IMG/VR virus record: IMGVR_UViG_3300030328_001943
Span: 1 to 54,256 of that record
DNA from: a virus
Taxonomy: Duplodnaviria; Caudoviricetes
DNA: 54,256 nucleotides
Direction: 5' to 3' (one strand)
Shown here: positions 1 to 54,256 of the stretch, piece after piece
How positions within the stretch are numbered: position 1 is the first letter of the stretch
Layout of the letters: each line of letters starts with the position of its first letter
Made by a program: the position numbers and the translations under genes
Notes under the pieces: generated by a model
Told to the model about the DNA's origin: nothing
The model's input: only the letters and a program-made list of their open reading frames with translations
Databases searched by the model: none

Positions 1-102
1 TCTGGCTCCCAATACTGATATTCTTGATAAGCTAACTTTTTAAGTTCTGGAAAATCTAATCTAGTTCTTTGACAGTCAAGTAAAATAATTGAATCAGGGG
101 CA
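1..102. repeat. Assembly terminal redundancy, copy 1 (circular genome)
   Basis: 1-102 matches 54155-54256 except g99 vs c54253. Confidence 0.97.
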
Positions 103-1118
103 TCCTCACTAGGTCTAAAAACACCCCAAGTTGATATGGCTGAATAGTCTGCTGTTTCTTTTTTTGAAAAAGCCGTATCGTAACTTTGAATAATGTATTG
201 AACTGCGGGCAAATTTTCGGACTCCCACTCTTGCCACCACTCACGTTTAATTATAGATCCTTCTTCAGCAGTTGGAGTTTGCAACCATTGTGCGTTCCAT
301 TTTATTAACGGCAAAGACGCTCTTACTCTTTCTAGCTCATCAAAAGACCAAAACTCAGGCCATAAAGGATTATCTGTTTCTGGAAAAACAGCAGGAAACT
401 CTATAACTTCCCATTGATCAGCTTTTAGTTCTTGTTGTGCGGTCAATAATTTAGCTGTTAAATCTGTATTACTCCAACGGGTCATAACTAAAACTATGGC
501 TCCTCCAGGTTGTAGCCTTTGTCTTGGTCCAGATGTGTACCATTCATAACAGGCTTCCATAGCAGTTTTAGATAATGAATCTTGTTCTGAGTGTGGATCA
601 TCTATAATTAATAGATCTGCGCCTCGACCTGTAATAGCTCCTCCTACACCTGCTGCAAAATATTCGCCACCTTTATTGGTTTCCCAACGTCCTGCTGATT
701 TAGAGTCTGCTTGTAATTCTACGTTTGGAAACAGTTTGCTAAATTCTTCTGTGTCCATCATGTTTCTTACTTTTCTACCAAACCTAACGGCTAACTCACC
801 TGTGTGTGTTGTCTGCATAATTTTACGATTTGGTTGTTTGCCCATAATCCAAGCTGGAAAGTAAGTAGATGCAAACTCTGATTTAGTATGACGAGGAGGC
901 ATATTAACAATTAATCGGTTAATTTTACCTTCTGCTATTTGTTGTAATTTATCCGCAAAAATTTCATGATGCCGACCACAAATAAATTCAGGCCACATTT
1001 GTTTTACAAACTCTAAAAAATTTTGTTGACAGTTATCTTGGTTTTTAAGATTATCTAGACGTTCTTTTAACAACAGAGCTTCTTTCATCTCTGTATCGGA
1101 TAAATGTGCTAGGCTCAT
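1..1118 (-). CDS. terL: Terminase large subunit, N-terminal part (continues at 54154-53809; about 487 aa in total)
   Basis: Not in the ORF track. Manual translation from ATG 1118 gives MSLAHLSDTEMKE...RLIVNMPPRHTKSEFAS (Walker A-like), GAITGRGADLLIIDDPHSEQD (Walker B), IQSYDTAFSKKETADYSA (nuclease). In frame with the 53809-54153 ORF across the junction. Confidence 0.95.
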   Translation of the reverse strand, partial: MSLAHLSDTEMKEALLLKERLDNLKNQDNCQQNFLEFVKQMWPEFICGRHHEIFADKLQQIAEGKINRLIVNMPPRHTKSEFASTYFPAWIMGKQPNRKIMQTTHTGELAVRFGRKVRNMMDTEEFSKLFPNVELQADSKSAGRWETNKGGEYFAAGVGGAITGRGADLLIIDDPHSEQDSLSKTAMEACYEWYTSGPRQRLQPGGAIVLVMTRWSNTDLTAKLLTAQQELKADQWEVIEFPAVFPETDNPLWPEFWSFDELERVRASLPLIKWNAQWLQTPTAEEGSIIKREWWQEWESENLPAVQYIIQSYDTAFSKKETADYSAISTWGVFRPSEDAPDSIILLDCQRTRLDFPELKKLAYQEYQYWEP

Positions 1119-4066: not shown

Positions 4067-5259
4067 TAGCTTAATCCTTTAGATCTTCCTAGTATGTCGC
4101 TAATTGATGCAAGATCTATATTACTCATGGTTCTACCACCAGATATACTGTCAATAAGTTCTTGAATTTTTAATTTACTAGACAAAGAATCTAAAATGTC
4201 TTGCTGGTCTTTATCTACTAAACTACTATCTAATTTAGCAGTTATAGTCTCAACCGTTTTTACAAAATTAGGTTTATCTTTATCAATTTTTTTGGCAGTT
4301 ACAATTGTTTCTCCACCTGCATTAAATTTCGGTAAGGCTTCTCTTCGTTCATCAACAGCTTCTTGTAAAGATTTTTGCATAGCTTTATTTTGTTTTGAAC
4401 TGAAGCTTTTGCGTACTTCATCTCCAAATCTGCCTTTTTTTAACCTATCGCGTAACGATTCTTGAAAGCCTCTTAACATAAAATTAGGTATTCCGCCTAT
4501 CCCTTCTGCACCCATATCTTCACCAGGATTTATTTGTCTTAGTAAATCAGGCCTATTTCTAAAGTTTTCAACGGTTGCCCTAAAACTATCTTCATCTCGA
4601 TCTAAGTCGCCAGGCATATTACTTAGTCTTATTTTGGCTGCCATCAAATTATTCATTTGCTCGCCTATCATATTGACCATATTTTGATCGTTATTCATTT
4701 GAGCCTCATTTAAGTCTAATTCCAATCTATCTAACTCAACATCAATACCAAATATTTGTTGTTCTGGACTTGCATTTAAGAAATCAACGATACTGCCACT
4801 CATATCTTGTGGTGGATTTAAAACAGATCCTAATCCTGATGCTAATGCTCTATCTTGTCTAGATAAAGGAGTATCTTTATCAGCCATTAATCCATCTTGA
4901 AACATAGGTACTCGCATGCCAAATTCTGGTGAAAATTTTTCTGGCCTAGGAATCATTCTGTTTTCCATACCCATAATTGGTTGGGGGGGAGTCATAGGCA
5001 TACTTGGCAGCATATTATTTGGCTGGGCTAGGGTACCTGATATACCTCTAAGATTACGCATGATATTTTGTTTAACACTATCGGGCAATCCTCCCATAGG
5101 AGATATTTTAGGCATTTGACTAAAATCCATATCGCCAATAGGTTGACCAAAGATTGTTGGGTTGAAAGAAGGCATTCTACCTCTAAAACGCATATCTCCA
5201 ATATTAGGCTTCATAGGAGAAACTGCCATTTTGTTTCTTAGTCTACTAAAAAAACCCAT
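4066..5259 (-). CDS. Putative virion-internal protein (397 aa, Met/Pro-rich N-terminus)
   Basis: ORF coupled to both neighbours; amphipathic start MGFFSRLRNK; FNAGG motif. Confidence 0.55.
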   Translation of the reverse strand: MGFFSRLRNKMAVSPMKPNIGDMRFRGRMPSFNPTIFGQPIGDMDFSQMPKISPMGGLPDSVKQNIMRNLRGISGTLAQPNNMLPSMPMTPPQPIMGMENRMIPRPEKFSPEFGMRVPMFQDGLMADKDTPLSRQDRALASGLGSVLNPPQDMSGSIVDFLNASPEQQIFGIDVELDRLELDLNEAQMNNDQNMVNMIGEQMNNLMAAKIRLSNMPGDLDRDEDSFRATVENFRNRPDLLRQINPGEDMGAEGIGGIPNFMLRGFQESLRDRLKKGRFGDEVRKSFSSKQNKAMQKSLQEAVDERREALPKFNAGGETIVTAKKIDKDKPNFVKTVETITAKLDSSLVDKDQQDILDSLSSKLKIQELIDSISGGRTMSNIDLASISDILGRSKGLS

Positions 5260-5558
5260 TACATCATGCCCATATTCATCTCAGGCTGACTTTCTCCCAT
5301 CAATAATTTCTCAACCATTTCTAATTCTTCAATAGTTAAGCCTATTTCAGCCAAAAATTGTGCTATTTCTTCCTCTGTAGCTCCATTTGCCTCTAATTGG
5401 GCAACAATATTTATGATCTCTTGTAAAGATTGTAAGGCTTCTTGCTTTTCTTCGGGGGAAATTTGAGATAATTCTTGCATGAGCATATTTTCAGGCGACA
5501 TATCCATACTTTGATTGCCTTGATTTAGACTCTGTTCTATTTGATCTAGTTCGTCCAT
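5259..5558 (-). CDS. Acidic helical hypothetical protein, first gene of the late operon
   Basis: ORF with AGGAGA ribosome-binding site just upstream. Confidence 0.7.
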   Translation of the reverse strand: MDELDQIEQSLNQGNQSMDMSPENMLMQELSQISPEEKQEALQSLQEIINIVAQLEANGATEEEIAQFLAEIGLTIEELEMVEKLLMGESQPEMNMGMM

Positions 5559-5836
5559 ATTTTTCTCCTGTAAAAAGGGTACGAAATATATATAAGGAAG
5601 GAGAAAGACCGTAATCGGGGTTGTTCCACTCGTACCCTTTTTAACTTACCAAAGATTGTAACACTAGGTTTATAAAAAAAGATAGGGTTGTGCTACAAAT
5701 CATTATTATTTGAGAGAGATGTTGTGTAAAGCTTGTGTTATATGCCTTGCATTTTTTTTAGCGATGGGGGGGTTTTCCATCCCAGCGCGCTCCCTCCGAT
5801 CACCTGCCCAAAAGAATCCTGCTCTTTTGAGTGGAC

Positions 5837-5862
5837 AAAAAAAAGGACACCTAAGTGTCCTT
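5837..5862 (-). terminator. Intrinsic terminator
   Basis: AAGGACAC/GTGTCCTT stem followed by a T-tract on the minus strand, downstream of the 5897-6049 ORF. Confidence 0.65.
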
Positions 5863-5896
5863 AATAATTTGACATCAAAGTATGATGTCGATTTAA

Positions 5897-6049
5897 CTAC
5901 TTCATAATCTCCCTCCTATGTAGTTGTGCTTTTTTATTTTGTTTCCACAAAGTCTTAACTTTGTGAACAGCTTGTATTTCATTCCGATATACATACGGAG
6001 TTATAAAATAGTTTGTATTACCCGTAGGAAAAATCCTAACCTCATACAT
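5897..6049 (-). CDS. Small hypothetical protein (50 aa)
   Basis: Manual translation MYEVRIFPTGNTNYFITPYVYRNEIQAVHKVKTLWKQNKKAQLHRREIMK; below the track cutoff; weak RBS. Confidence 0.45.
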   Translation of the reverse strand: MYEVRIFPTGNTNYFITPYVYRNEIQAVHKVKTLWKQNKKAQLHRREIMK

Positions 6050-6059
6050 GATGTCAACC

Positions 6060-6275
6060 TTAGTTGACATCATCACGAATAGGTAAAAGGTTATTAGGTT
6101 GATTATTGCCTAATGCCTGAGTTTCTTGATTACTAAACAAAGCCATATATTCCTCATAACATATCTGACCATTACGAATTACTGTAATGCCATTTATTAC
6201 AAGTTCCTGACAATTCTCTTCTAAAGCAAGACCAACAACCTGTTCACCTTGCATTATTTGTATATTCAATTTCAT
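6060..6275 (-). CDS. Hypothetical early protein
   Basis: ORF with GGAGA RBS and an upstream promoter-like sequence. Confidence 0.65.
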   Translation of the reverse strand: MKLNIQIMQGEQVVGLALEENCQELVINGITVIRNGQICYEEYMALFSNQETQALGNNQPNNLLPIRDDVN

Positions 6276-6302
6276 AGTTTTTCTCCAAATGTTTATTGTT
6301 CT

Positions 6303-6333
6303 AATATAACACGATTTGATTACTATGTGTAAA
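6303..6333 (-). promoter_or_regulatory. Sigma70-like promoter with overlapping TTAC-N5-GTAA operator
   Basis: TTTACA-19-TATATT (long spacer); operator at 6320-6332. Confidence 0.5.
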
Positions 6334-6624
6334 TTAATTTAATTTTATTTTTTAGACCTAAATCTAGCTTGACGACACCCTGGAGTGCGTTTTTTTTGTG
6401 TTAGGTGTGGTTTAGCTTTGCTAACCTAAAGAAAGAAACAACTACATTTGAAATCCCGATCCCGATATTACTCTATTAATAAATAGACTAAAAAGAACAA
6501 AAGTATTAATAGGAGTATATCCACGAGCAGACGCCAGCGCGCGCGCTAACTTTTGTTATGTGTGTGACAAAGGGCCAGGCATCTGGGGCAACTATGAAAC
6601 CCAGAGCCCGACCCGACCCGAGAC

Positions 6625-6990
6625 TTATCTATCACAAAAAATGACATCAAAGCCATAGTATGTTTCAAGATACCAGTCCTGGATTCCCTGAGGAAAGCTA
6701 TAACTATCTGGACAGGATCCCAAAGAATAGCCGACACCCCAGTCATGCGGTCCAGCCTCATATGTAACCCAAATATCTCCCTTATCCACTTCTGAGAATT
6801 TTGAACTATCATCTGACATGCTTACTTCCCATTTAGGATCGTGCCCAGTTCTCCTGGCTTGTTCCTTTAGGGCTATATACAATTGCTTTGCTGCCTCTGC
6901 TTTTGGCACTTTCTGCGTGACAAAATCAGGCAACAGACTTGGATCTAGCTCAAAATAATAATTGAACCCTTTCTCTTTTACATTTGACAT
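6625..6990 (-). CDS. Hypothetical early protein (121 aa)
   Basis: AAGGAGA RBS and its own promoter; WVTYEAGPHDW motif. Confidence 0.75.
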   Translation of the reverse strand: MSNVKEKGFNYYFELDPSLLPDFVTQKVPKAEAAKQLYIALKEQARRTGHDPKWEVSMSDDSSKFSEVDKGDIWVTYEAGPHDWGVGYSLGSCPDSYSFPQGIQDWYLETYYGFDVIFCDR

Positions 6991-7019
6991 ATTACTTCTC
7001 CTTTTTTATATGTAAGCTC

Positions 7020-7048
7020 AATATACAGATTATTTTACTGATTGTAAA
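7020..7048 (-). promoter_or_regulatory. Sigma70-like promoter with operator
   Basis: TTTACA-17-TATATT; TTAC-tgatt-GTAA at 7035-7047. Confidence 0.7.
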
Positions 7049-7290
7049 CCCTTCTTTTAATATTAATTAACGCTGCATTTTTGGCATCTAACGCAGCCGA
7101 AGGGCCTGGATGGAAGCTCAGGTGTTAGGTGTTAACCAAAAAAAATTCAAATCCCAGTCCAGATCCTGAATTTAGATCCCGATTCCCGATTGTTTTTGAT
7201 TTATAGATCTCTTTTAGGCAACAAGAAACTTTCCCCCTGGAAAGAGGGCCAATTTTTTGTGTGAGGTGTTATTTAAAAAATTAGATGACC

Positions 7291-7322
7291 AAAAAAAACG
7301 GGATTGAATATCAATCCCGTTT
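7291..7322 (-). terminator. Intrinsic terminator
   Basis: 12-bp stem AAACGGGATTGA/TCAATCCCGTTT with a T-tract on the minus strand, downstream of 7377-7613. Confidence 0.7.
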
Positions 7323-7376
7323 CCCGTTTATTCTATTAGTATGATTAGGACTAACAGTAGTAATATTAAAAACCAT

Positions 7377-7613
7377 TCAAGCATTCATTTTATCTTCCTT
7401 TTTTAGTGGATTTTTTGGAAGTAAAAAATCAGACTTGACTAATTCTTTTAACATTTCTTTTGGTAGATGACTTAATATGTCTAATGCTACATCAATCATA
7501 AATCTATATTCTTCGTAGCTTTTATCCATTCTGCTATATCTACCCATAACTCTATAACCAAGTACGCTAAAATCATCTAGCTTGATTGAAGTTAATTTTT
7601 TATTTTTAGACAT
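7377..7613 (-). CDS. Hypothetical early protein
   Basis: ORF overlapping the upstream gene; AGGAG RBS. Confidence 0.65.
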   Translation of the reverse strand: MSKNKKLTSIKLDDFSVLGYRVMGRYSRMDKSYEEYRFMIDVALDILSHLPKEMLKELVKSDFLLPKNPLKKEDKMNA

Positions 7614-7788
7614 ACTTTACTCCTCTATTAAATGAACAATAAAGTCGCCAAGCCTTAACAAGCATTTCTGCTTCTTCTTTAGGTAATTGGAACGCTTCGA
7701 CCAAAGATTGAGAATAACTCAATACAGTATTTTTTTTAGACGCTTGAAGTTCGTCTAAGAACTCAAAATACACAGTTTCATTTTTCAT
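7606..7788 (-). CDS. Hypothetical early protein
   Basis: AAGGAGA RBS and promoter. Confidence 0.7.
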   Translation of the reverse strand: MKNETVYFEFLDELQASKKNTVLSYSQSLVEAFQLPKEEAEMLVKAWRLYCSFNRGVKYV

Positions 7789-7817
7789 ATACTTCTCCTT
7801 TATTAATATGAACCTTG

Positions 7818-7845
7818 ATTATAACAAATGAATACTAAGTGTAAA
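7818..7845 (-). promoter_or_regulatory. Sigma70 promoter (extended -10) with operator
   Basis: TTTACA-16-TATAAT with TGn extension; ATAC-taagt-GTAA at 7832-7844. Confidence 0.75.
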
Positions 7846-8288
7846 CCTTTTTTTTATAGTTGACACAACGCAGTTTTACCAGCGCGCGCGCTAACTTGGT
7901 CTTAGGTGTAAATTTCTACCAGAAACCTAGCTTCTAAATAATAAATAATACAAACCCCGATCCCGTTTTACTCTTGACATACTTGACAGGCAGGAGATCC
8001 CAGCGCGCGCTCCATCCAGCTCTATAGTGTTATAAAAAAATTTTTAACCACCTGGTTTTTTACTATAAACAGTCCCGTTCCCGTCCCGATTACCTGAAGT
8101 GCCAGGAGGGCCCTCTGGATCTCCTGAGTGATGTGTATGTGTTAAAGTATACATATGGTTCAAAATAGCAAAAAAGCTATCCCGTCCCGTCCCGTTTGAA
8201 TTTATATTGGCAGACCGACCGAGGGACAAAGAAAATGCTAATAATCTCACCCCCCTATGAAAATAATATTATTTACAATATTTTATAG

Positions 8289-8336
8289 ATACTAATAGTA
8301 ATCTCCATAAAAGTATGTATAATTTACATATAGTAA
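8289..8336 (+). promoter_or_regulatory. Rightward promoter flanked by two operators
   Basis: TATAAT at 8318-8323; ATAC-taata-GTAA at 8289-8301; TTAC-atata-GTAA at 8324-8336. Confidence 0.6.
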
Positions 8337-8354
8337 TCATTAACAGGAGAAATA

Positions 8355-8771
8355 ATGAAATACAAATTGAAAGAAAATAATAAATTTACGCATATCAGGA
8401 AGAACACTTTTGATATACCAACAGGGCCGTTAGATAGTCCTATAACGAACGGACATGAACTCTACGAGTTTCTTATGAGTATAGCTAACAAAGAACGCTA
8501 TCAGTTCAAAGGAAGAGGTAGAGGTAGCCGTAAGAAATACGGAACTGTTAGAGATCTACCAATAGAATACGCTGAAAAAATAGCACTCTATCACTCTACT
8601 AGAGATCATATTGCTTACAAAGAAATACAAGAATTAGAAAGATCTAACTCAGCTTGGAAGATTAGCTGTCAGTTAGAAAATGTTATGTCAGCGATTGAAG
8701 ATCATAACGCAGAGTTTAATAACGATTTAGAAGTAGAATTTAGCAACAAGGAGGAGTTATGCCAAGAGTAA
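8355..8771 (+). CDS. Hypothetical early protein
   Basis: AGGAGA RBS; basic RYQFKGRGRGSRKKYG segment. Confidence 0.75.
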   Translation: MKYKLKENNKFTHIRKNTFDIPTGPLDSPITNGHELYEFLMSIANKERYQFKGRGRGSRKKYGTVRDLPIEYAEKIALYHSTRDHIAYKEIQELERSNSAWKISCQLENVMSAIEDHNAEFNNDLEVEFSNKEELCQE

Positions 8772-8995
8772 AACATCTAACCAGAGGAACGACTATAGAA
8801 CTTACAGCAGAGGAATCTCATAAGTTTATAGATCTAATTAATGAACTTGATAATACTTTATTTACAGTTTATGAAATACAAGATTTATATTTATCAGACA
8901 TACAAAAATTAAATGATTTAAAGCTTCATTTAATTAGGTTGTTTAATTTAGATTATGACAGGGACGACCGCAGATATATTAAGGAGAAAAAATAA
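8759..8995 (+). CDS. Hypothetical protein
   Basis: GGAGGAG RBS; operon context. Confidence 0.75.
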   Translation: MPRVKHLTRGTTIELTAEESHKFIDLINELDNTLFTVYEIQDLYLSDIQKLNDLKLHLIRLFNLDYDRDDRRYIKEKK

Positions 8996-9384
8996 TGTCT
9001 ACATATTACAGACCAAGCACACCAATACCATTAGATGATATTAAGAACAACAAGAGTCTTAAACTACAAGGCTTTAAAGTGGTTCAAGAAGATGGAGAAC
9101 AATATTTTTATTGTGATTCATATTTACATTTTAGTACAGACAACAAAAATAATGTGATAGATCTATACAGATACAACAGCAATAATGCTGATGATGTATT
9201 AGAGCCGTTGTCTATAGAGTTTGGAGTAGATTTCATTAGTGAGTATGAGGACGAATACCAGGATCTAGCAAGTCCAGATACACCTGTAATGACTTTTAGT
9301 TGGGAGAGCCTAGCAGAGCAAGGCCATTCACCTAAGATGATTGAAAGTACTTTAGCAGAACAAGGAAATGAAAATGAAATATGA
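8995..9384 (+). CDS. Hypothetical protein
   Basis: AAGGAG RBS; translational coupling. Confidence 0.75.
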   Translation: MSTYYRPSTPIPLDDIKNNKSLKLQGFKVVQEDGEQYFYCDSYLHFSTDNKNNVIDLYRYNSNNADDVLEPLSIEFGVDFISEYEDEYQDLASPDTPVMTFSWESLAEQGHSPKMIESTLAEQGNENEI

Positions 9385-9559
9385 AGTTAAGACCGACCCC
9401 AGATATTGGGATTGTGATTGCGATAATAAATACATACATCTTAAAACAGACAAATTGTCTTGTTCTATATGTGGAATGACTGAAGATGAGTGTTCGGATT
9501 CAAGACCGAATGAAATTAAATTGTATTATACAAATTATAAGGAAAACCAAGATGGATAA
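9368..9559 (+). CDS. Small putative zinc-binding protein
   Basis: WDCDC...H...CSIC motif. Confidence 0.65.
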   Translation: MKMKYEVKTDPRYWDCDCDNKYIHLKTDKLSCSICGMTEDECSDSRPNEIKLYYTNYKENQDG

Positions 9560-10180: not shown

Positions 10181-10732
10181 TTATTTTTCTGCGTTATCGC
10201 TTTGTTGATTGTCGAGTAAAGGATCTTCTGGCTTTACTTCAATAGTTTGTCCTAATAACTGTGCTAACCTTTTCTCTACTTCTTCCCTAGACATTTGATC
10301 TATTGTCCCGTATTTAACTTCTTTGCGATCCACAACCAGGCCTCCAACCTTCAAGAGCATACCCTGGGCTGCAACAGCAGCGTTATAACTGCCGTTCTCT
10401 AAGGCTTTATCCCGTATGGTATACAAATCTTGGACAGCCCGATCATAATTGAGTTCATACTTCTTTTTAACTTCATTCATTAAATGATGATATTCAGATC
10501 TAACGAGTGGATTCATCATTAACTTATTAGCTTGTTGGCGTGGATCTTTGTACCCAGCCTTACTTGCAGCTTCAATCAAGCTTTCGCGTGGATTATTAAC
10601 TGCGTTCCAGATAAACAAGTGTTGCCTACGATTCAGGCGTTTATCAAGTGTAAAATATTCTATTGGGGGATCATCAGTATCTTTGATGATGGGATTATAT
10701 ACTAGCTTTTCGTCAGCGACTCTTGGTTTCAT
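10181..10732 (-). CDS. terS: Terminase small subunit
   Basis: HTH LNRRQHLF...EAASKAGY...ANKLMMNPLV, then helical RDKALENGSYNAAVAA and VDRKEV segments typical of TerS. Confidence 0.85.
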   Translation of the reverse strand: MKPRVADEKLVYNPIIKDTDDPPIEYFTLDKRLNRRQHLFIWNAVNNPRESLIEAASKAGYKDPRQQANKLMMNPLVRSEYHHLMNEVKKKYELNYDRAVQDLYTIRDKALENGSYNAAVAAQGMLLKVGGLVVDRKEVKYGTIDQMSREEVEKRLAQLLGQTIEVKPEDPLLDNQQSDNAEK

Positions 10733-10849
10733 AAGTACTTATAAATATTACCTTACCCTACCAATCCTTATAGTATTACCGAGATGATAGCATCTGAGCT
10801 GAGCGCGCGTCAATATATTTTTTATAAATATATGTATGTTTTATTTATT

Positions 10850-10950
10850 ACTCTGACAAAAATGACAAAAATAAAAAAATCCCGAAACCCCCGTGTTTAT
10901 AAGGTTTTCTTGCGTCATGACACTTATGACAATAATACGACAATAATAAT
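10850..10950. repeat. (T)GACAA iterons flanking an inverted repeat; candidate replication origin
   Basis: TGACAAA twice, GAAACC...GGTTTTC, GTCATGAC palindrome, GACAATAATA twice, next to an AT-rich tract. Confidence 0.4.
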
Positions 10951-11233: not shown

Positions 11234-11563
11234 TCAAGACTCCGTAAGACTATATTTTAGCGTTAATTCTTCACCTGATTTAACTTTTACAGTAGTAACT
11301 AAATCGTACATATCCATCTCTAAGAATGTATTAACTTTTTTCACTAAAACACAATTTGGTTTATCCGAGTGGTTGATAAAACCGCCTAATGGCATACGGA
11401 TTAAATTAAGGTGAGTTTTTGCTCTATTAGATCTTATATGCGATATACCTAAATTAGTGTTGCCTGTTATATCTTCAACTGCAAATAGACCCAAACCCTC
11501 TATATCACTAGGCTGTATTGTTAAACAGTCTGGTAAGGGCCTATAACTAAATTTATCACTCAT
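11234..11563 (-). CDS. SET-domain protein (putative lysine methyltransferase)
   Basis: S.IEGLGLFA, GFINHSDKPNC and GEELTLKY SET signatures; likely start 11563. Confidence 0.85.
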   Translation of the reverse strand: MSDKFSYRPLPDCLTIQPSDIEGLGLFAVEDITGNTNLGISHIRSNRAKTHLNLIRMPLGGFINHSDKPNCVLVKKVNTFLEMDMYDLVTTVKVKSGEELTLKYSLTES

Positions 11564-11747
11564 ATTTACCGCTAATGCCATGAAACTCGTCCCACATATC
11601 ATTTAGGTTGTCTAAATAGAATGATGATTCATATTGCGAACTTATCTTTATTAGATTGTTCTTGAACTCATTAACAGTCTCGGCACCCTCTATAGCTATC
11701 TCACAATCACTTTCAAACTGAATTAATAGATCTTTTAGTCTTGACAT
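11556..11747 (-). CDS. Hypothetical protein
   Basis: AGGAG RBS. Confidence 0.65.
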   Translation of the reverse strand: MSRLKDLLIQFESDCEIAIEGAETVNEFKNNLIKISSQYESSFYLDNLNDMWDEFHGISGKYE

Positions 11748-13916: not shown

Positions 13917-14040
13917 TGTTTTAATATGGTTATTTGTAATCTTTTTAGTCTGGAATGTGCTGGCAATGTCTTTAGTTTATACTCGTAGATGGGTAGATAG
14001 AAATAAACAAGATATAGTTAAGTGCAAATGGACAAAGTAA
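13909..14040 (+). CDS. Small membrane protein (43 aa)
   Basis: MIDVLIWLFVIFLVWNVLAMSLVYTRRW...; GGAGA RBS. Confidence 0.5.
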   Translation: MIDVLIWLFVIFLVWNVLAMSLVYTRRWVDRNKQDIVKCKWTK

Positions 14041-14903
14041 ATCCATACTTCCTAAAAAATCCCTCTTTAATTAGCTTTTCAGGTGGTCGCACATCTGGAT
14101 ATATGCTGTATCAAATACTAAAAGCACATGACGGCAAGTTGCCAGATGATGTCTTTGTTGTGTTTGCTAATACAGGTAAAGAGATGCCTGAAACATTAGA
14201 CTTTATTCAAGAAGTTGGTGATAAGTGGGGCATAGATATTCGCTGGTTAGAATTAGATATACATGATGAAAGGCCTATATTTAGATCTAAAGAAGTAAAT
14301 TATGAAACTGCAAGCAGAAATGGAGAGCCGTTTGAAGCATTAATAGACAGGAAAATGATGCTGCCAAATACAGTTATGCGGATCTGCACAGTTGAAATGA
14401 AAATTAAAGTCCTGGCAAGGTTCATGAGATCTAACGGTTTTAAAGAATGGGATAATGTTGTTGGCCTTAGATATGACGAACCTCATAGGGTAGCAAGAAT
14501 GAAAGCAAACAATGACAAAGATTTAGAGTCTTGGTTTTCATTAGCACCATTATATGATGCCAAAGTGGTTGTTGAAGATGTTTCAGAATTTTGGAACAAA
14601 AGTAATTTTGATTTACAGCTTACAAACTTTAACGGTAAAACCCCTGCAGGCAATTGTGATCTATGTTATTTAAAAGGTGTTGGAACTCTTACAAGAGTTA
14701 TTAAAGAAAAGCCAGAGCTAGCAGATTGGTGGATAGCACAAGAAGAAAAGATAAGAAAACACAAAGAAAAAATGGGCAGTAAATACAACGCCCAATTTAA
14801 AAATAATATTTCTTTTATAGAATTAAAAGAACAAGCTACAGCGCCCAACGTAATGCCAGAACTTTTTCCTGATGATGGAACGAGTTGTTTTTGTACGGAT
14901 TAA
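14028..14903 (+). CDS. PAPS-reductase-family (PP-loop) Cys-rich protein
   Basis: SFSGGRTS, FANTGKE...T, RICT..MK, GLRYDE..R, GNCDLC and C-terminal CFC motifs. Confidence 0.85.
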   Translation: MDKVNPYFLKNPSLISFSGGRTSGYMLYQILKAHDGKLPDDVFVVFANTGKEMPETLDFIQEVGDKWGIDIRWLELDIHDERPIFRSKEVNYETASRNGEPFEALIDRKMMLPNTVMRICTVEMKIKVLARFMRSNGFKEWDNVVGLRYDEPHRVARMKANNDKDLESWFSLAPLYDAKVVVEDVSEFWNKSNFDLQLTNFNGKTPAGNCDLCYLKGVGTLTRVIKEKPELADWWIAQEEKIRKHKEKMGSKYNAQFKNNISFIELKEQATAPNVMPELFPDDGTSCFCTD

Positions 14904-53615: not shown

Positions 53616-53812
53616 TAGTGTAATACCCTCGGCTCTATTTCATCACCGTGTTCTATACTGTGATAAATTTTATCTTTAATCTCACCTACTAATCTAACAT
53701 TAAAATCTTCAGCTTGATTTATAGCTTCTTCAAAAGTTTTTGCAATCACTATGGGACCATCAATAGTCTGACCATTTTTTACATACTCAGTTATAAAAAA
53801 TCTATACATCAA
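53615..53812 (-). CDS. Small hypothetical protein, paralog of 31242-31418
   Basis: FIT...GP...A....EA...AE......GE..D...VLH. Confidence 0.7.
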   Translation of the reverse strand: MMYRFFITEYVKNGQTIDGPIVIAKTFEEAINQAEDFNVRLVGEIKDKIYHSIEHGDEIEPRVLH

Positions 53813-54256
53813 TAATATTCTCGTTTGATAGGTAAGCGATCTCTATCTTCATAATCATCTGACAATGAAACTAAACCACCTTCCCTAAATCTCATCATAG
53901 CTTGAGTCATAGTATCACATAAATCATCATTTGCTCCAAACGGAAAAGATGCACACTCTTCTATCATTTCTTGAGCAAAGCTTTTGTAACTTGGAGCCCA
54001 AACTAAACCACTTTCAAATATTGGTGCAACAGAGTGCATACGAGAGTGTTTGTCATGGCCGCGAGTAGGAGAATAATTAACCACAGGTATGCCTAATCTT
54101 CTAAGCTCATGCGTTAATGGTGTTCCACTTGCTTTACTTTCAATTAACACCATATCTGGCTCCCAATACTGATATTCTTGATAAGCTAACTTTTTAAGTT
54201 CTGGAAAATCTAATCTAGTTCTTTGACAGTCAAGTAAAATAATTGAATCAGGCGCA
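53809..54256 (-). CDS. terL: Terminase large subunit, C-terminal part
   Basis: IESKASG, DK..R and FP.G.NDDLCD nuclease motifs; in frame with 1-1118. Confidence 0.95.
   Translation of the reverse strand, partial: APDSIILLDCQRTRLDFPELKKLAYQEYQYWEPDMVLIESKASGTPLTHELRRLGIPVVNYSPTRGHDKHSRMHSVAPIFESGLVWAPSYKSFAQEMIEECASFPFGANDDLCDTMTQAMMRFREGGLVSLSDDYEDRDRLPIKREYY
54155..54256. repeat. Assembly terminal redundancy, copy 2
   Basis: Matches 1-102 with one mismatch. Confidence 0.97.

Follow-up and report, generated by a model that had tools for sequence, protein, structure and literature searches.

The early region of a marine tailed-phage genome carries seven copies (M1 to M7) of a tripartite DNA module, all in one orientation and far beyond what chance would give, and modules of the same design recur in a single orientation among uncultured relatives of this phage. 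The genome, IMG/VR record IMGVR_UViG_3300030328_001943 (Caudoviricetes), was analysed over its whole length of 54,256 bp, hereafter the window, and its completeness is estimated at 99%. The modules sit in a stretch of small genes of unassigned function between a TerS-like gene and TerL, and each consists of a GC-rich box (box 1), a G/T-only box (box 2) and a set of CCCG units (box 3). We tentatively propose that they may act as directional boundary or insulator elements of early transcription units, possibly read by host machinery.

A polar three-box module in the early region

The first-pass annotation had described seven tripartite, polar modules, and both this description and every box coordinate behind it held when boxes 1, 2 and 3 were rechecked on the sequence. 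Box 1 starts as CC(A/T)G at 6379, 6534, 7105, 7236, 7879 and 8000, and as TCTG at 8114; box 3 starts at 6455, 6607, 7178, 7316, 7956, 8074 and 8181/8186. The pattern CCCG-N1-3-CCCG occurs at seven places on the plus strand and nowhere on the minus strand of the 54,256 bases, against a mean of 0.14 and a maximum of 3 for both strands in 500 first-order Markov resamplings of the window. When the GT box is added (NGTGT-N30-50-CCCG-N1-3-CCCG), the seven observed occurrences, all on the plus strand, compare with a resampled mean of 0.004 and a maximum of 1. Measured from where the last NGTGT ends, box 3 follows after 46, 41, 45, 46, 46, 43 and 38 nucleotides (nt) in M1 to M7, and the GC-rich CCWG box lies about 30 nt beyond the GT box in all seven. 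A repeat search aligned the box 1-box 2 part of four modules, together with the GT boxes of others; M5 to M7 are tandem units placed 121 and 114 bp apart. The spacers had been described as diverged, and they are indeed dissimilar from module to module, with A-tracts common among them. The array is not confined to 6370-8197, as had been supposed, in that degenerate copies lie on the same strand at 5712-5830 and 10795-10895.

Individually, the modules are built as follows, all coordinates being on the plus strand. M1 (6372-6466) begins with a GC hairpin and T8 (6372-6397), its GT box ends at 6408, and two TCCCGA units lie at 6454-6466. In M2 (6534-6621), a (CG)5 palindrome precedes a GT box that ends at 6563-6565; the (CCCGA)x3 of this module, at 6607-6621, is only 3 nt from the stop of the minus-strand gene 6625-6990. 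The GC-rich CCTGG box of M3 (7095-7191) is followed by two tandem copies of GGTGTTA (7121-7134) and two of TCCCGAT (7177-7190). M4 (7233-7329) has a hairpin with T6, a GT box and two box-3 units; the first unit (7316-7319) forms the plus-strand 3' arm of a bidirectional intrinsic terminator at 7296-7322, and the second lies beyond the stem of that terminator. M5 (7879-7966) combines a (CG)5 palindrome with a GT box that ends at 7909 and with CCCCGATCCCG at 7955-7965; in M6 (8000-8089), a (CG)4 box comes before TATAGTGTTA, which ends at 8030-8032, and TCCCG occurs three times at 8073-8089. In M7 (8104-8197), a CAGGAG/CTCCTG hairpin is followed by a TG tract that stops at 8142 and by (TCCCG)x3 at 8180-8195. 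The degenerate eighth module at 10795-10895, upstream of the TerS-like gene, consists of a GCGCGC box, a TATGTATGTTTTA box and TCCCGAAACCCCCG. The other degenerate copy (5712-5830), placed between a minus-strand terminator and a promoter at 5730, has a GT box like that of the relatives (TTGTGTTATATGCCTTGCA) and then a C-rich tract without tandem CCCGW.

Conservation and polarity in relatives

The first gene of the rightward early operon (8355-8771, plus strand) encodes a 138-amino-acid protein that served as the handle for fetching relatives; as a single query it gave four viral contigs, and in the form of an alignment it gave 42 metagenome contigs. A tandem-CCCG cluster lies on the strand of the 138-amino-acid gene in 29 of the 42 metagenome loci and on the opposite strand in none; in the other 13 loci, which have no cluster, the sequence before the gene is always shorter than about 720 nt. 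With a minimum of 100 nt of upstream sequence, 112 modules were counted, 93 of them distinct. With a relaxed pattern, 97 clusters in one orientation and none in the other were found across 18 sources, the whole window included; the element is thus conserved and one-directional in related phages, where the first-pass annotation had wished it to be sought. One relative, L002, has all seven modules in the same places. Five long IMG/VR relatives gave 13/0, 12/0, 0/8, 0/13 and 12/0 matches on the two strands, compared with 0-1 matches for a reversed-pattern control. Matches fall within a few kilobases in four of these five, with G001 and G002 carrying their arrays mid-contig; in G003 they are scattered, with an outlier near 44.7 kb. 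A distant lineage represented by L025 and by G003/L312, with TerL 56-58% identical, also has modules made of a GT box and CCCGA units, and there the CCCGA units are kept and their spacing is free.

The five cultured relatives showed no excess of the motif over the control. Other searches added little: blastn of 5500-9500 against phage records gave no close DNA match, tblastn with the 138-amino-acid protein gave no match, and, as queries, a neighbouring 397-amino-acid protein retrieved no relatives and the exonuclease two. The pattern TAGGTGT-N35-55-CCCG-N1-3-CCCG matched at least 117 stretches in viral contigs, mostly by chance, and L025 alone was useful. A search for (CCCGA)x4 in 185,579 species genomes is silent on the host, with none of 120 loci among the matches listed lying below 48% GC.

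Several observations on these relatives stand beside the modules. In the TerS-TerL interval of the cultured phage HTVC023P (L292, 10667-17221), the small genes are separated by long gaps with repeats of other kinds: three copies of a 33-nt unit, five to six of CTAGGAAA and three of a unit of about 40 nt. In the second subfamily, the last module is followed by a purine-only mirror-like tract (GGGGGAGAGAGGGAAAGAGAGGGGGG), in L154 (5100-5130) and at the corresponding place in 16 other relatives (alignment A2); its counterpart in the window, at 8215-8235, is weak. Two modules of L025 (8080-8100 and 8915-8935) share a small hairpin with the conserved loop CGTTTTAA, and its closing pairs covary (GTCT/AGAC versus ATCT/AGAT). 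Box 3 can also sit in coding sequence, because the 3' end of a minus-strand open reading frame (ORF) for 135 amino acids overlaps the CCCGA repeats in L025 (9927-10334) and in L312 (1693-2100, flipped).

Composition and spacing of the boxes

Box 1 is a GC-rich zone enriched in words rather than a single sequence. Of 68 non-redundant zones, 61 contain CCAG/CTGG, 41 GATC and 39 CCWGG; the first of these words reaches a density of 2.0 per 45 nt, a 5.8-fold enrichment given that the genome has 0.26. In some relatives CTGGTGTG or GCTGGTGT stands at the junction of boxes 1 and 2. Box 2 is a G/T-only tract with 0% C on the plus strand, built of TGTGTTA-like units with periods of about 5-10 nt. A 13-nt core, GTGTTAGGTGTTA, is found in M3, M1 and M4 (one mismatch each) and in the L002 orthologues. 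Box 3 consists of two to six repeats of C3-5-G-(A/T) with periods of 5-7 nt or more: the units are contiguous in L025 and spaced by 8, 16 and 9 nt in L312. The minus strand of the modules has a G-free, CA-rich stretch. On the plus strand, where the genome as a whole has a C/G ratio of 1.2, the spacer reaches 1.6 and the zone of box 3 reaches 2.9; for individual window modules, counted over the 58-66 nt that follow box 2 and include box 3, the values are 1.2-3.75.

The spacing had been claimed to be kept, which is true in the window, at 38-46 nt, and does not extend to the family, where it is loose: from box 2 to the first CCCG it covers 16-47 nt in 50 non-redundant modules, in groups at 16, 22-27 and 36-47 nt. 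Where the distance is short, a second CCCG cluster lies, by reading, about 40-46 nt out. The unit periods of boxes 2 and 3 vary as well, and such variable periods argue against phased double-stranded iterons or wrapping; the idea of a helically phased array that wraps the DNA is weakened accordingly. The strand-asymmetric composition, above all the absence of C from box 2, suggests that a single-stranded reading, or one by a tracking enzyme, would fit better.

Genes, promoters and terminators around the modules

The minus strand carries almost all structural genes of the phage and the four small genes among the modules (6060-6275, 6625-6990, 7377-7613 and 7606-7788). Read along it, a gene, with or without a terminator, is followed by box 3, box 2, box 1, a promoter and the next gene, and this order holds in all three gaps of the window and at the TerS-like gene (10181-10732, minus strand, assigned on weak matches in PHROGs/Pfam scans). 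The predicted early promoters are sigma70-like and lie on the minus strand at 7818-7845 (P7845; TTTACA-16-TATAAT, 11 of 12 matches, for genes 7788-7377, with box 1 of M5 about 35 nt upstream), at 7020-7048 (10 of 12, for gene 6990-6625) and at 6303-6331 (P6331; 9 of 12, with a TG, for gene 6275-6060). A further one at 5730 is overlapped at its -35 by the GT box of the degenerate copy 5712-5830, and an intrinsic terminator at 5843-5862, also on the minus strand, ends leftward small-gene units. The early promoters are 35-80 nt from the modules, which are always upstream. On the plus strand of the window, promoter-like sites appear at 8207 and beyond. The sigma70-like scan of 5500-9000 returned 13 sites, as compared with 13.7 +/- 3.1 in shuffled sequences, and it placed no promoter inside any of the seven modules on either strand. 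Since most modules also lack a terminator, the boxes are not explained as ordinary promoter or terminator parts; a full explanation of that kind was what the first-pass annotation had named as a refutation.

The same arrangement is seen in L154, where three minus-strand promoters (12, 11 and 11 of 12 matches) lie to the left of modules and minus-strand terminators lie to the right of two of those three modules. Among the 93 distinct modules, terminator-like sites were found on the minus strand in 24 and on the plus strand in 12. M4 alone has a terminator inside the module in the window, and minus-strand terminators at or beside box 3 occur in M4 and in one module type of the relatives. The hairpin of box 1 in M1 and M4 has a wholly different sequence in L002, and yet the hairpin and its T6-8 run are retained, which we regard as the signature of a putative plus-strand terminator. 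No tandem-CCCG module was present in either of the two overlapping, co-transcribed gene pairs examined, 7377-7788 in the window and 2965-3752 in L154. Two of the three L025 modules lie between convergent genes and the third in a divergent gap; from these positions, the module needs neither a gene to drive nor a given neighbour.

Two further features lie close to these signals. A 20-nt inverted repeat (6317-6336/8320-8339, 95% complementary) has the word TTTACA(C/T)ATAGTAATCA in both arms, one within a promoter that reads leftward and the other immediately before the first gene of the rightward operon, and the word is a candidate for a shared operator or promoter core. A hairpin at 5869-5887 (GACATC...GATGTC), beside the minus-strand terminator, shows a compensatory change in L002 (GGCATC...GATGCC), and the leftward transcript probably includes it at its 3' end.

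Exchange of gene cassettes

Comparison with relatives showed that genes of this region can be replaced. The gene at 6060-6275 (71 amino acids) is kept in all relatives examined, and the two overlapping genes at 7377-7788 (78 and 60 amino acids) are conserved in L002, all on the minus strand. The 121-amino-acid gene at 6625-6990 (minus strand), which is without a family match, is swapped in L002 for an unrelated gene of 119 amino acids (4314-4660), with flanks 83-84% identical. Homology ends there right after box 3 of M2 (6626) and returns at the ribosome-binding site (6976). Between L154 and L142 another gene has been replaced, with both breakpoints at ORF boundaries or at a ribosome-binding site. 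One of the four breakpoints thus abuts a module and three lie at ORF ends or ribosome-binding sites, and the first-pass idea of recombination sites that shuffle cassettes gains no specific support. Transcription units and modules are gained and lost together among the relatives. The modules appear, on this comparison of genomes, as the conserved flanks of variable cassettes and not as the usual crossover points.

No integrase or recombinase gene was found when 53 ORFs (50 of at least 99 amino acids and three shorter ones) were compared with PHROGs; only Sak4-like and exonuclease genes appeared. As for attC sites, GTTAGGT fits GTTRRRY in M1 and M3 only, and a paired inverse core was not seen by reading.

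Tests for RNA

The first-pass annotation had argued against a non-coding RNA, and the tests agree. ARAGORN found no tRNA or tmRNA genes, and Rfam gave no match at the gathering score and three chance-level matches at a permissive threshold (E-values 0.24-1.3). Folding z-scores of the window modules range from -3.2 to +1.4 over both strands, without a common fold. For 19 orthologues of the last module, RNAalifold gave -1.8/-5.2 kcal/mol on the two strands with 1 and 0 compensatory pairs, and stems drawn by hand show a few compensatory changes and broken pairs too. Against dinucleotide shuffles, the mean z was -0.13 (plus) and -0.24 (minus) for n = 68, and -0.29 and -0.40 for n = 31. An apparent lack of structure in the plus-strand spacer (mononucleotide z +0.46, p 2e-5) was an artefact that disappeared with dinucleotide shuffles, and the box 1 zones did not differ significantly from mononucleotide shuffles (z -0.21 plus, -0.31 minus). 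Spacer and box 3 fold weakly on the plus strand, with a mean of -3.5 kcal/mol over 46 nt. No public RNA run holding 5800-8400 was found.

How might the modules work?

How might a sequence with these properties act? Because the polarity is strict and the composition is strand-asymmetric, tracking along one strand or along nascent RNA is suggested. We considered, as the leading if tentative explanation, that the modules are directional boundary or insulator elements of early transcription units. With box 3 toward the terminator and box 1 toward the promoter, between the end of a leftward unit and the next promoter, they would be read as directional insulators by host machinery that tracks along DNA or nascent RNA. 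They would stop read-through from the upstream unit and also divergent transcripts fired backward from AT-rich promoters; each cassette would thereby have independent expression, and control of the rightward operon would be left to its own promoter. Transcription as the target of the modules, a host rather than a phage factor as their reader, and a Rho/Nus-type or other identity for that factor are what we infer; what the sequences show is the position, polarity, conservation and strand-asymmetric composition of the modules and, for a subset, their being physically built into terminators.

A host factor seems the more likely reader because the L025/L312 lineage has modules and yet BLAST finds no early protein in common with the window, and because the 138-amino-acid protein is missing from the module-bearing G003 (79% complete). 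This protein was considered as the reader and rejected; its predicted structure is poor (mean predicted local distance difference test score, pLDDT, of 52) and had no usable Atlas match. With a host factor as reader, it would also be understandable that relatives infecting other hosts lack the motif.

Several results weigh against this explanation. Only M3, M5 and M6 stand out in their C/G ratio. No sigma70-like plus-strand promoter was found between 5500 and 8200, and the source of a plus-strand transcript is thus assumed. Canonical terminators occur in only a minority of modules (12 and 24 of 93), the convergent genes of L025 already have terminators of their own, and RNA structure appears neither selected for nor against once dinucleotide content is kept. 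Moreover, generic terminators or Rho sites would presumably need no conserved TGTGTTA, CCCGW and CCAG/CTGG words. It is conceivable, if rather doubtful, that these words (CCAG/CTGG with GATC, TGTGTTA and CCCGW) form an undescribed strand-specific punctuation signal, read by the host, that loads or halts a dedicated tracking factor, for which a termination or antitermination factor, a Chi-like reader that tames an exonuclease, or a translocase would be candidates. If this were true, the modules would point to a new control step in infection and would provide a sequence signature for the host.

The modules might instead be duplex binding sites for a regulatory or architectural protein, of phage or host origin, that switches the early promoters, perhaps by looping or wrapping, and this is the idea at the centre of the first-pass annotation. 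Conserved short words between drifting spacers would suit such sites, as would the GTGTTAGGTGTTA core kept in M1, M3, M4 and the L002 orthologues, the enrichment of CCAG/CTGG (61 of 68) and GATC (41 of 68) in box 1 zones, the frequent A-tracts and the constant place of the modules 35-80 nt upstream of early promoters. We nevertheless consider this unlikely: varying unit periods and a distance of 16-47 nt between boxes 2 and 3 are unsuited to phased sites, the strict G/T versus C asymmetry of the strands is unnecessary for recognition of a duplex, and no candidate binder is common to both module-bearing lineages, the model of the 138-amino-acid protein being uninformative.

If the plus strand were transcribed, the modules could yield small RNAs with exposed CCCGW units as seed or sponge motifs. 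Module A of L025 lies between two terminators; its RNA would be about 85 nt long, starting with a hairpin at the 5' end, continuing as single-stranded (CCCGA)x3 and closing with a terminator whose loop carries further CCCGA units. Likewise, the box 1 hairpin and T-run of M2 and M4 could end RNAs begun in M1 and M3. A few hairpins have G-U pairs on the plus strand only (the M7 stem has 8 pairs on the plus and 5 on the minus strand), one stem variant in L134/L135 favours the plus strand in the same way, and spacer and box 3 fold only weakly on that strand. These points are outweighed by the absence of a plus-strand sigma70-like promoter from the seven modules in the scan, of a plus-strand terminator from 81 of the 93 modules, and of a common fold, covariation support or an Rfam match, with z-scores that cannot be told from those of dinucleotide shuffles, and small RNAs are in our judgement improbable.

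Strict polarity, with short G-rich words on opposite strands (GT-rich on the plus, WCGGG on the minus) whose copy number and spacing are free, and the absence from cultured relatives that infect other hosts also recall host-specific polar signals repeated for recognition, either Chi-like, taming RecBCD/AddAB, or like the FtsK orienting polar sequences (KOPS), loading a translocase. We presume CTGGTGTG/GCTGGTGT to be close to the Chi word of Escherichia coli, and the reverse complement of box 3 (GGGTCGGG) to be one base off its KOPS word. However, CCCGW outside the arrays occurs 10 times on the plus and 16 times on the minus strand, without strand skew in the phage, and three word classes in fixed order are not expected of Chi, which makes such signals quite improbable here.

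Could the modules be derived from promoters? Their minus-strand box 2 contains a -35-like hexamer, TTTACA in M5 (the phage's own -35), TTAACA in M3 and M7, ATAACA in M2, M4 and M6 and CTAACA in M1, beside an UP-like A/T tract. In many cases C-N-TA comes after the hexamer, as it does in P7845 and P6331, and A/T runs and GG come before it, as in P7845; box 1 lies about where a -10 would be (27-33 nt), as a GC-rich block; and the degenerate copy 5712-5830 shares part of its GT box with the -35 of a predicted promoter. Such half-promoters might capture host RNA polymerase or hold it beside the true early promoters, or they might be used by a modified polymerase at a later stage of infection. Yet no -10-like hexamer lies at 16-18 nt in any of the seven modules, the promoters of the second subfamily (TTGACA, then GGTTGTAACC) resemble box 2 in no more than the hexamer, the spacing between hexamer and CCAGG/CTGG is variable (by reading, about 13-26 nt), and box 3 and the CCAG/CTGG words are left unexplained. 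We accordingly give this idea little credence.

Packaging (TerS/pac), replication-origin, injection-stop or dedicated recombination signals are very improbable: the array lies between the TerS-like gene and TerL with a degenerate copy just upstream of the former, and a gene between modules was swapped with one breakpoint right after box 3 of M2 while unit and module numbers vary together, but seven to nine dispersed copies are unlike a pac, cos or origin site, the G001 and G002 arrays lie mid-contig, the first-pass ideas of TerS/pac loading and staged injection gained no specific support, no recombinase was found among the 53 ORFs scanned, three of four breakpoints are not at modules, and words of at most 13 nt identical between copies are too short for homologous exchange. 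Sigma54, ECF-sigma, extended -10 and T7/SP6-like promoters, tRNA T-arm mimicry, IHF, CRP and DnaA sites, and Z-DNA or H-DNA sinks, all considered by eye, gave no consistent matches. A G-quadruplex or i-motif was dropped, as most copies have only two or three C-tracts, and so were small ORFs through box 3, of which the one in M7 is not kept in L002.

Comparison with known systems

The promoter-early stem-loop (PeSL) elements of T4-like phages, described in PMC4122927 as composite terminator/promoter motifs of hyperplastic regions, resemble the modules in being repeated intergenic regulatory cassettes between small variable early genes, with neighbours that are swapped and non-coding flanks that are conserved. 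The location between small variable ORFs is shared; of the four breakpoints, one (6626) abuts a module and three lie at ORF ends or ribosome-binding sites. PeSL itself, however, is a promoter and stem-loop co-oriented with the genes, whereas here promoters and terminators are separate sequences, none of the seven modules is promoter-like, most are without a terminator, and the modules have words of their own (CCWG/GATC, TGTGTTA and CCCGW).

Other systems are matched in part. The antiterminator sites of lambdoid nut and rrn regions, with their boxA, boxB and boxC consensus sequences, are likewise polar and of several parts, and the minus strand of a module has a CA-rich word (UAACAC; CUUUAACAC in M7), a spacer and often a short GC hairpin, in the order boxA-spacer-boxB. 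Unlike them, the modules lie upstream of early promoters, outside the transcripts, and number 7-9 copies rather than two; they lack the pyrimidine-rich 5' half of boxA, a hairpin is by no means present throughout (box 1 z -0.2 and -0.3, not significant), and an N-like protein was not identified. Rho-dependent terminators such as lambda tR1 are polar too, and their C-rich, G-poor, weakly folding character is found over 45-60 nt of the plus strand. Rho utilization (rut) sites, in contrast, are without sequence conservation, the C/G excess is modest in four of the seven window modules, and the modules fold like shuffled controls.

The R1 parC, P1 pac and SPP1 pac sites are arrays of short direct repeats, and the modules share with iteron, centromere and pac arrays the clusters of short direct repeats, the A-tract-rich DNA between them and the fixed order. 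Iterons keep their period and phase, whereas here the period varies (5-7 nt, and 8/16/9 in L312), the copies are many and dispersed, and no adjoining initiator or partition gene was found in the PHROGs and Pfam scans. Finally, T7 has its tandem early promoters A1, A2 and A3 about 125 bp apart, and M5 to M7 likewise head the early region as three tandem units (121 and 114 bp apart), but without a sigma70-like promoter in either direction.

The phage and its lineage

The gene for TerL is parted over both ends of the window (1-1118 and 53809-54256), and the assembly is therefore circular. Portal, capsid and terminase group the phage with the Pelagibacter phages HTVC023P and HTVC027P, the Roseobacter phages CRP-901 and CRP-902 and phage DSL-LC04, to which the capsid is 59-70% and the portal 43-53% identical. 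No RNA polymerase gene was found (53 ORFs against PHROGs, 22 against Pfam), and PMC10149686 likewise presents CRP-901/902 as without one. The TerS-like gene is about 9 kb from TerL, with the whole small-gene region and the rightward operon between them; in L025 the two genes are adjacent. Near the early region are genes for a SET-domain protein (11234-11602; Pfam E-value 1.2e-7) and a PAPS-reductase-like protein (14022-14903; PHROG E-value 2.5e-48).

Significance

A word search of the main text of three papers on this group (PMC9599517, PMC12753301 and PMC10149686) returned no description of such elements. The most fitting description of the module is that of a variant, particular to this lineage, of the intergenic regulatory cassettes of phages, with an unusual tripartite and strictly polar grammar. 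The variable small-gene region between TerS and TerL is, in this group, organised as cassettes of terminator, module and promoter. To our knowledge nothing is known of early-gene timing in phages of the HTVC023P/CRP-901 type, and a polar element at the boundaries of early units offers a handle on it. If a host factor does read the words of the modules, these words could also help to assign hosts to uncultured relatives.

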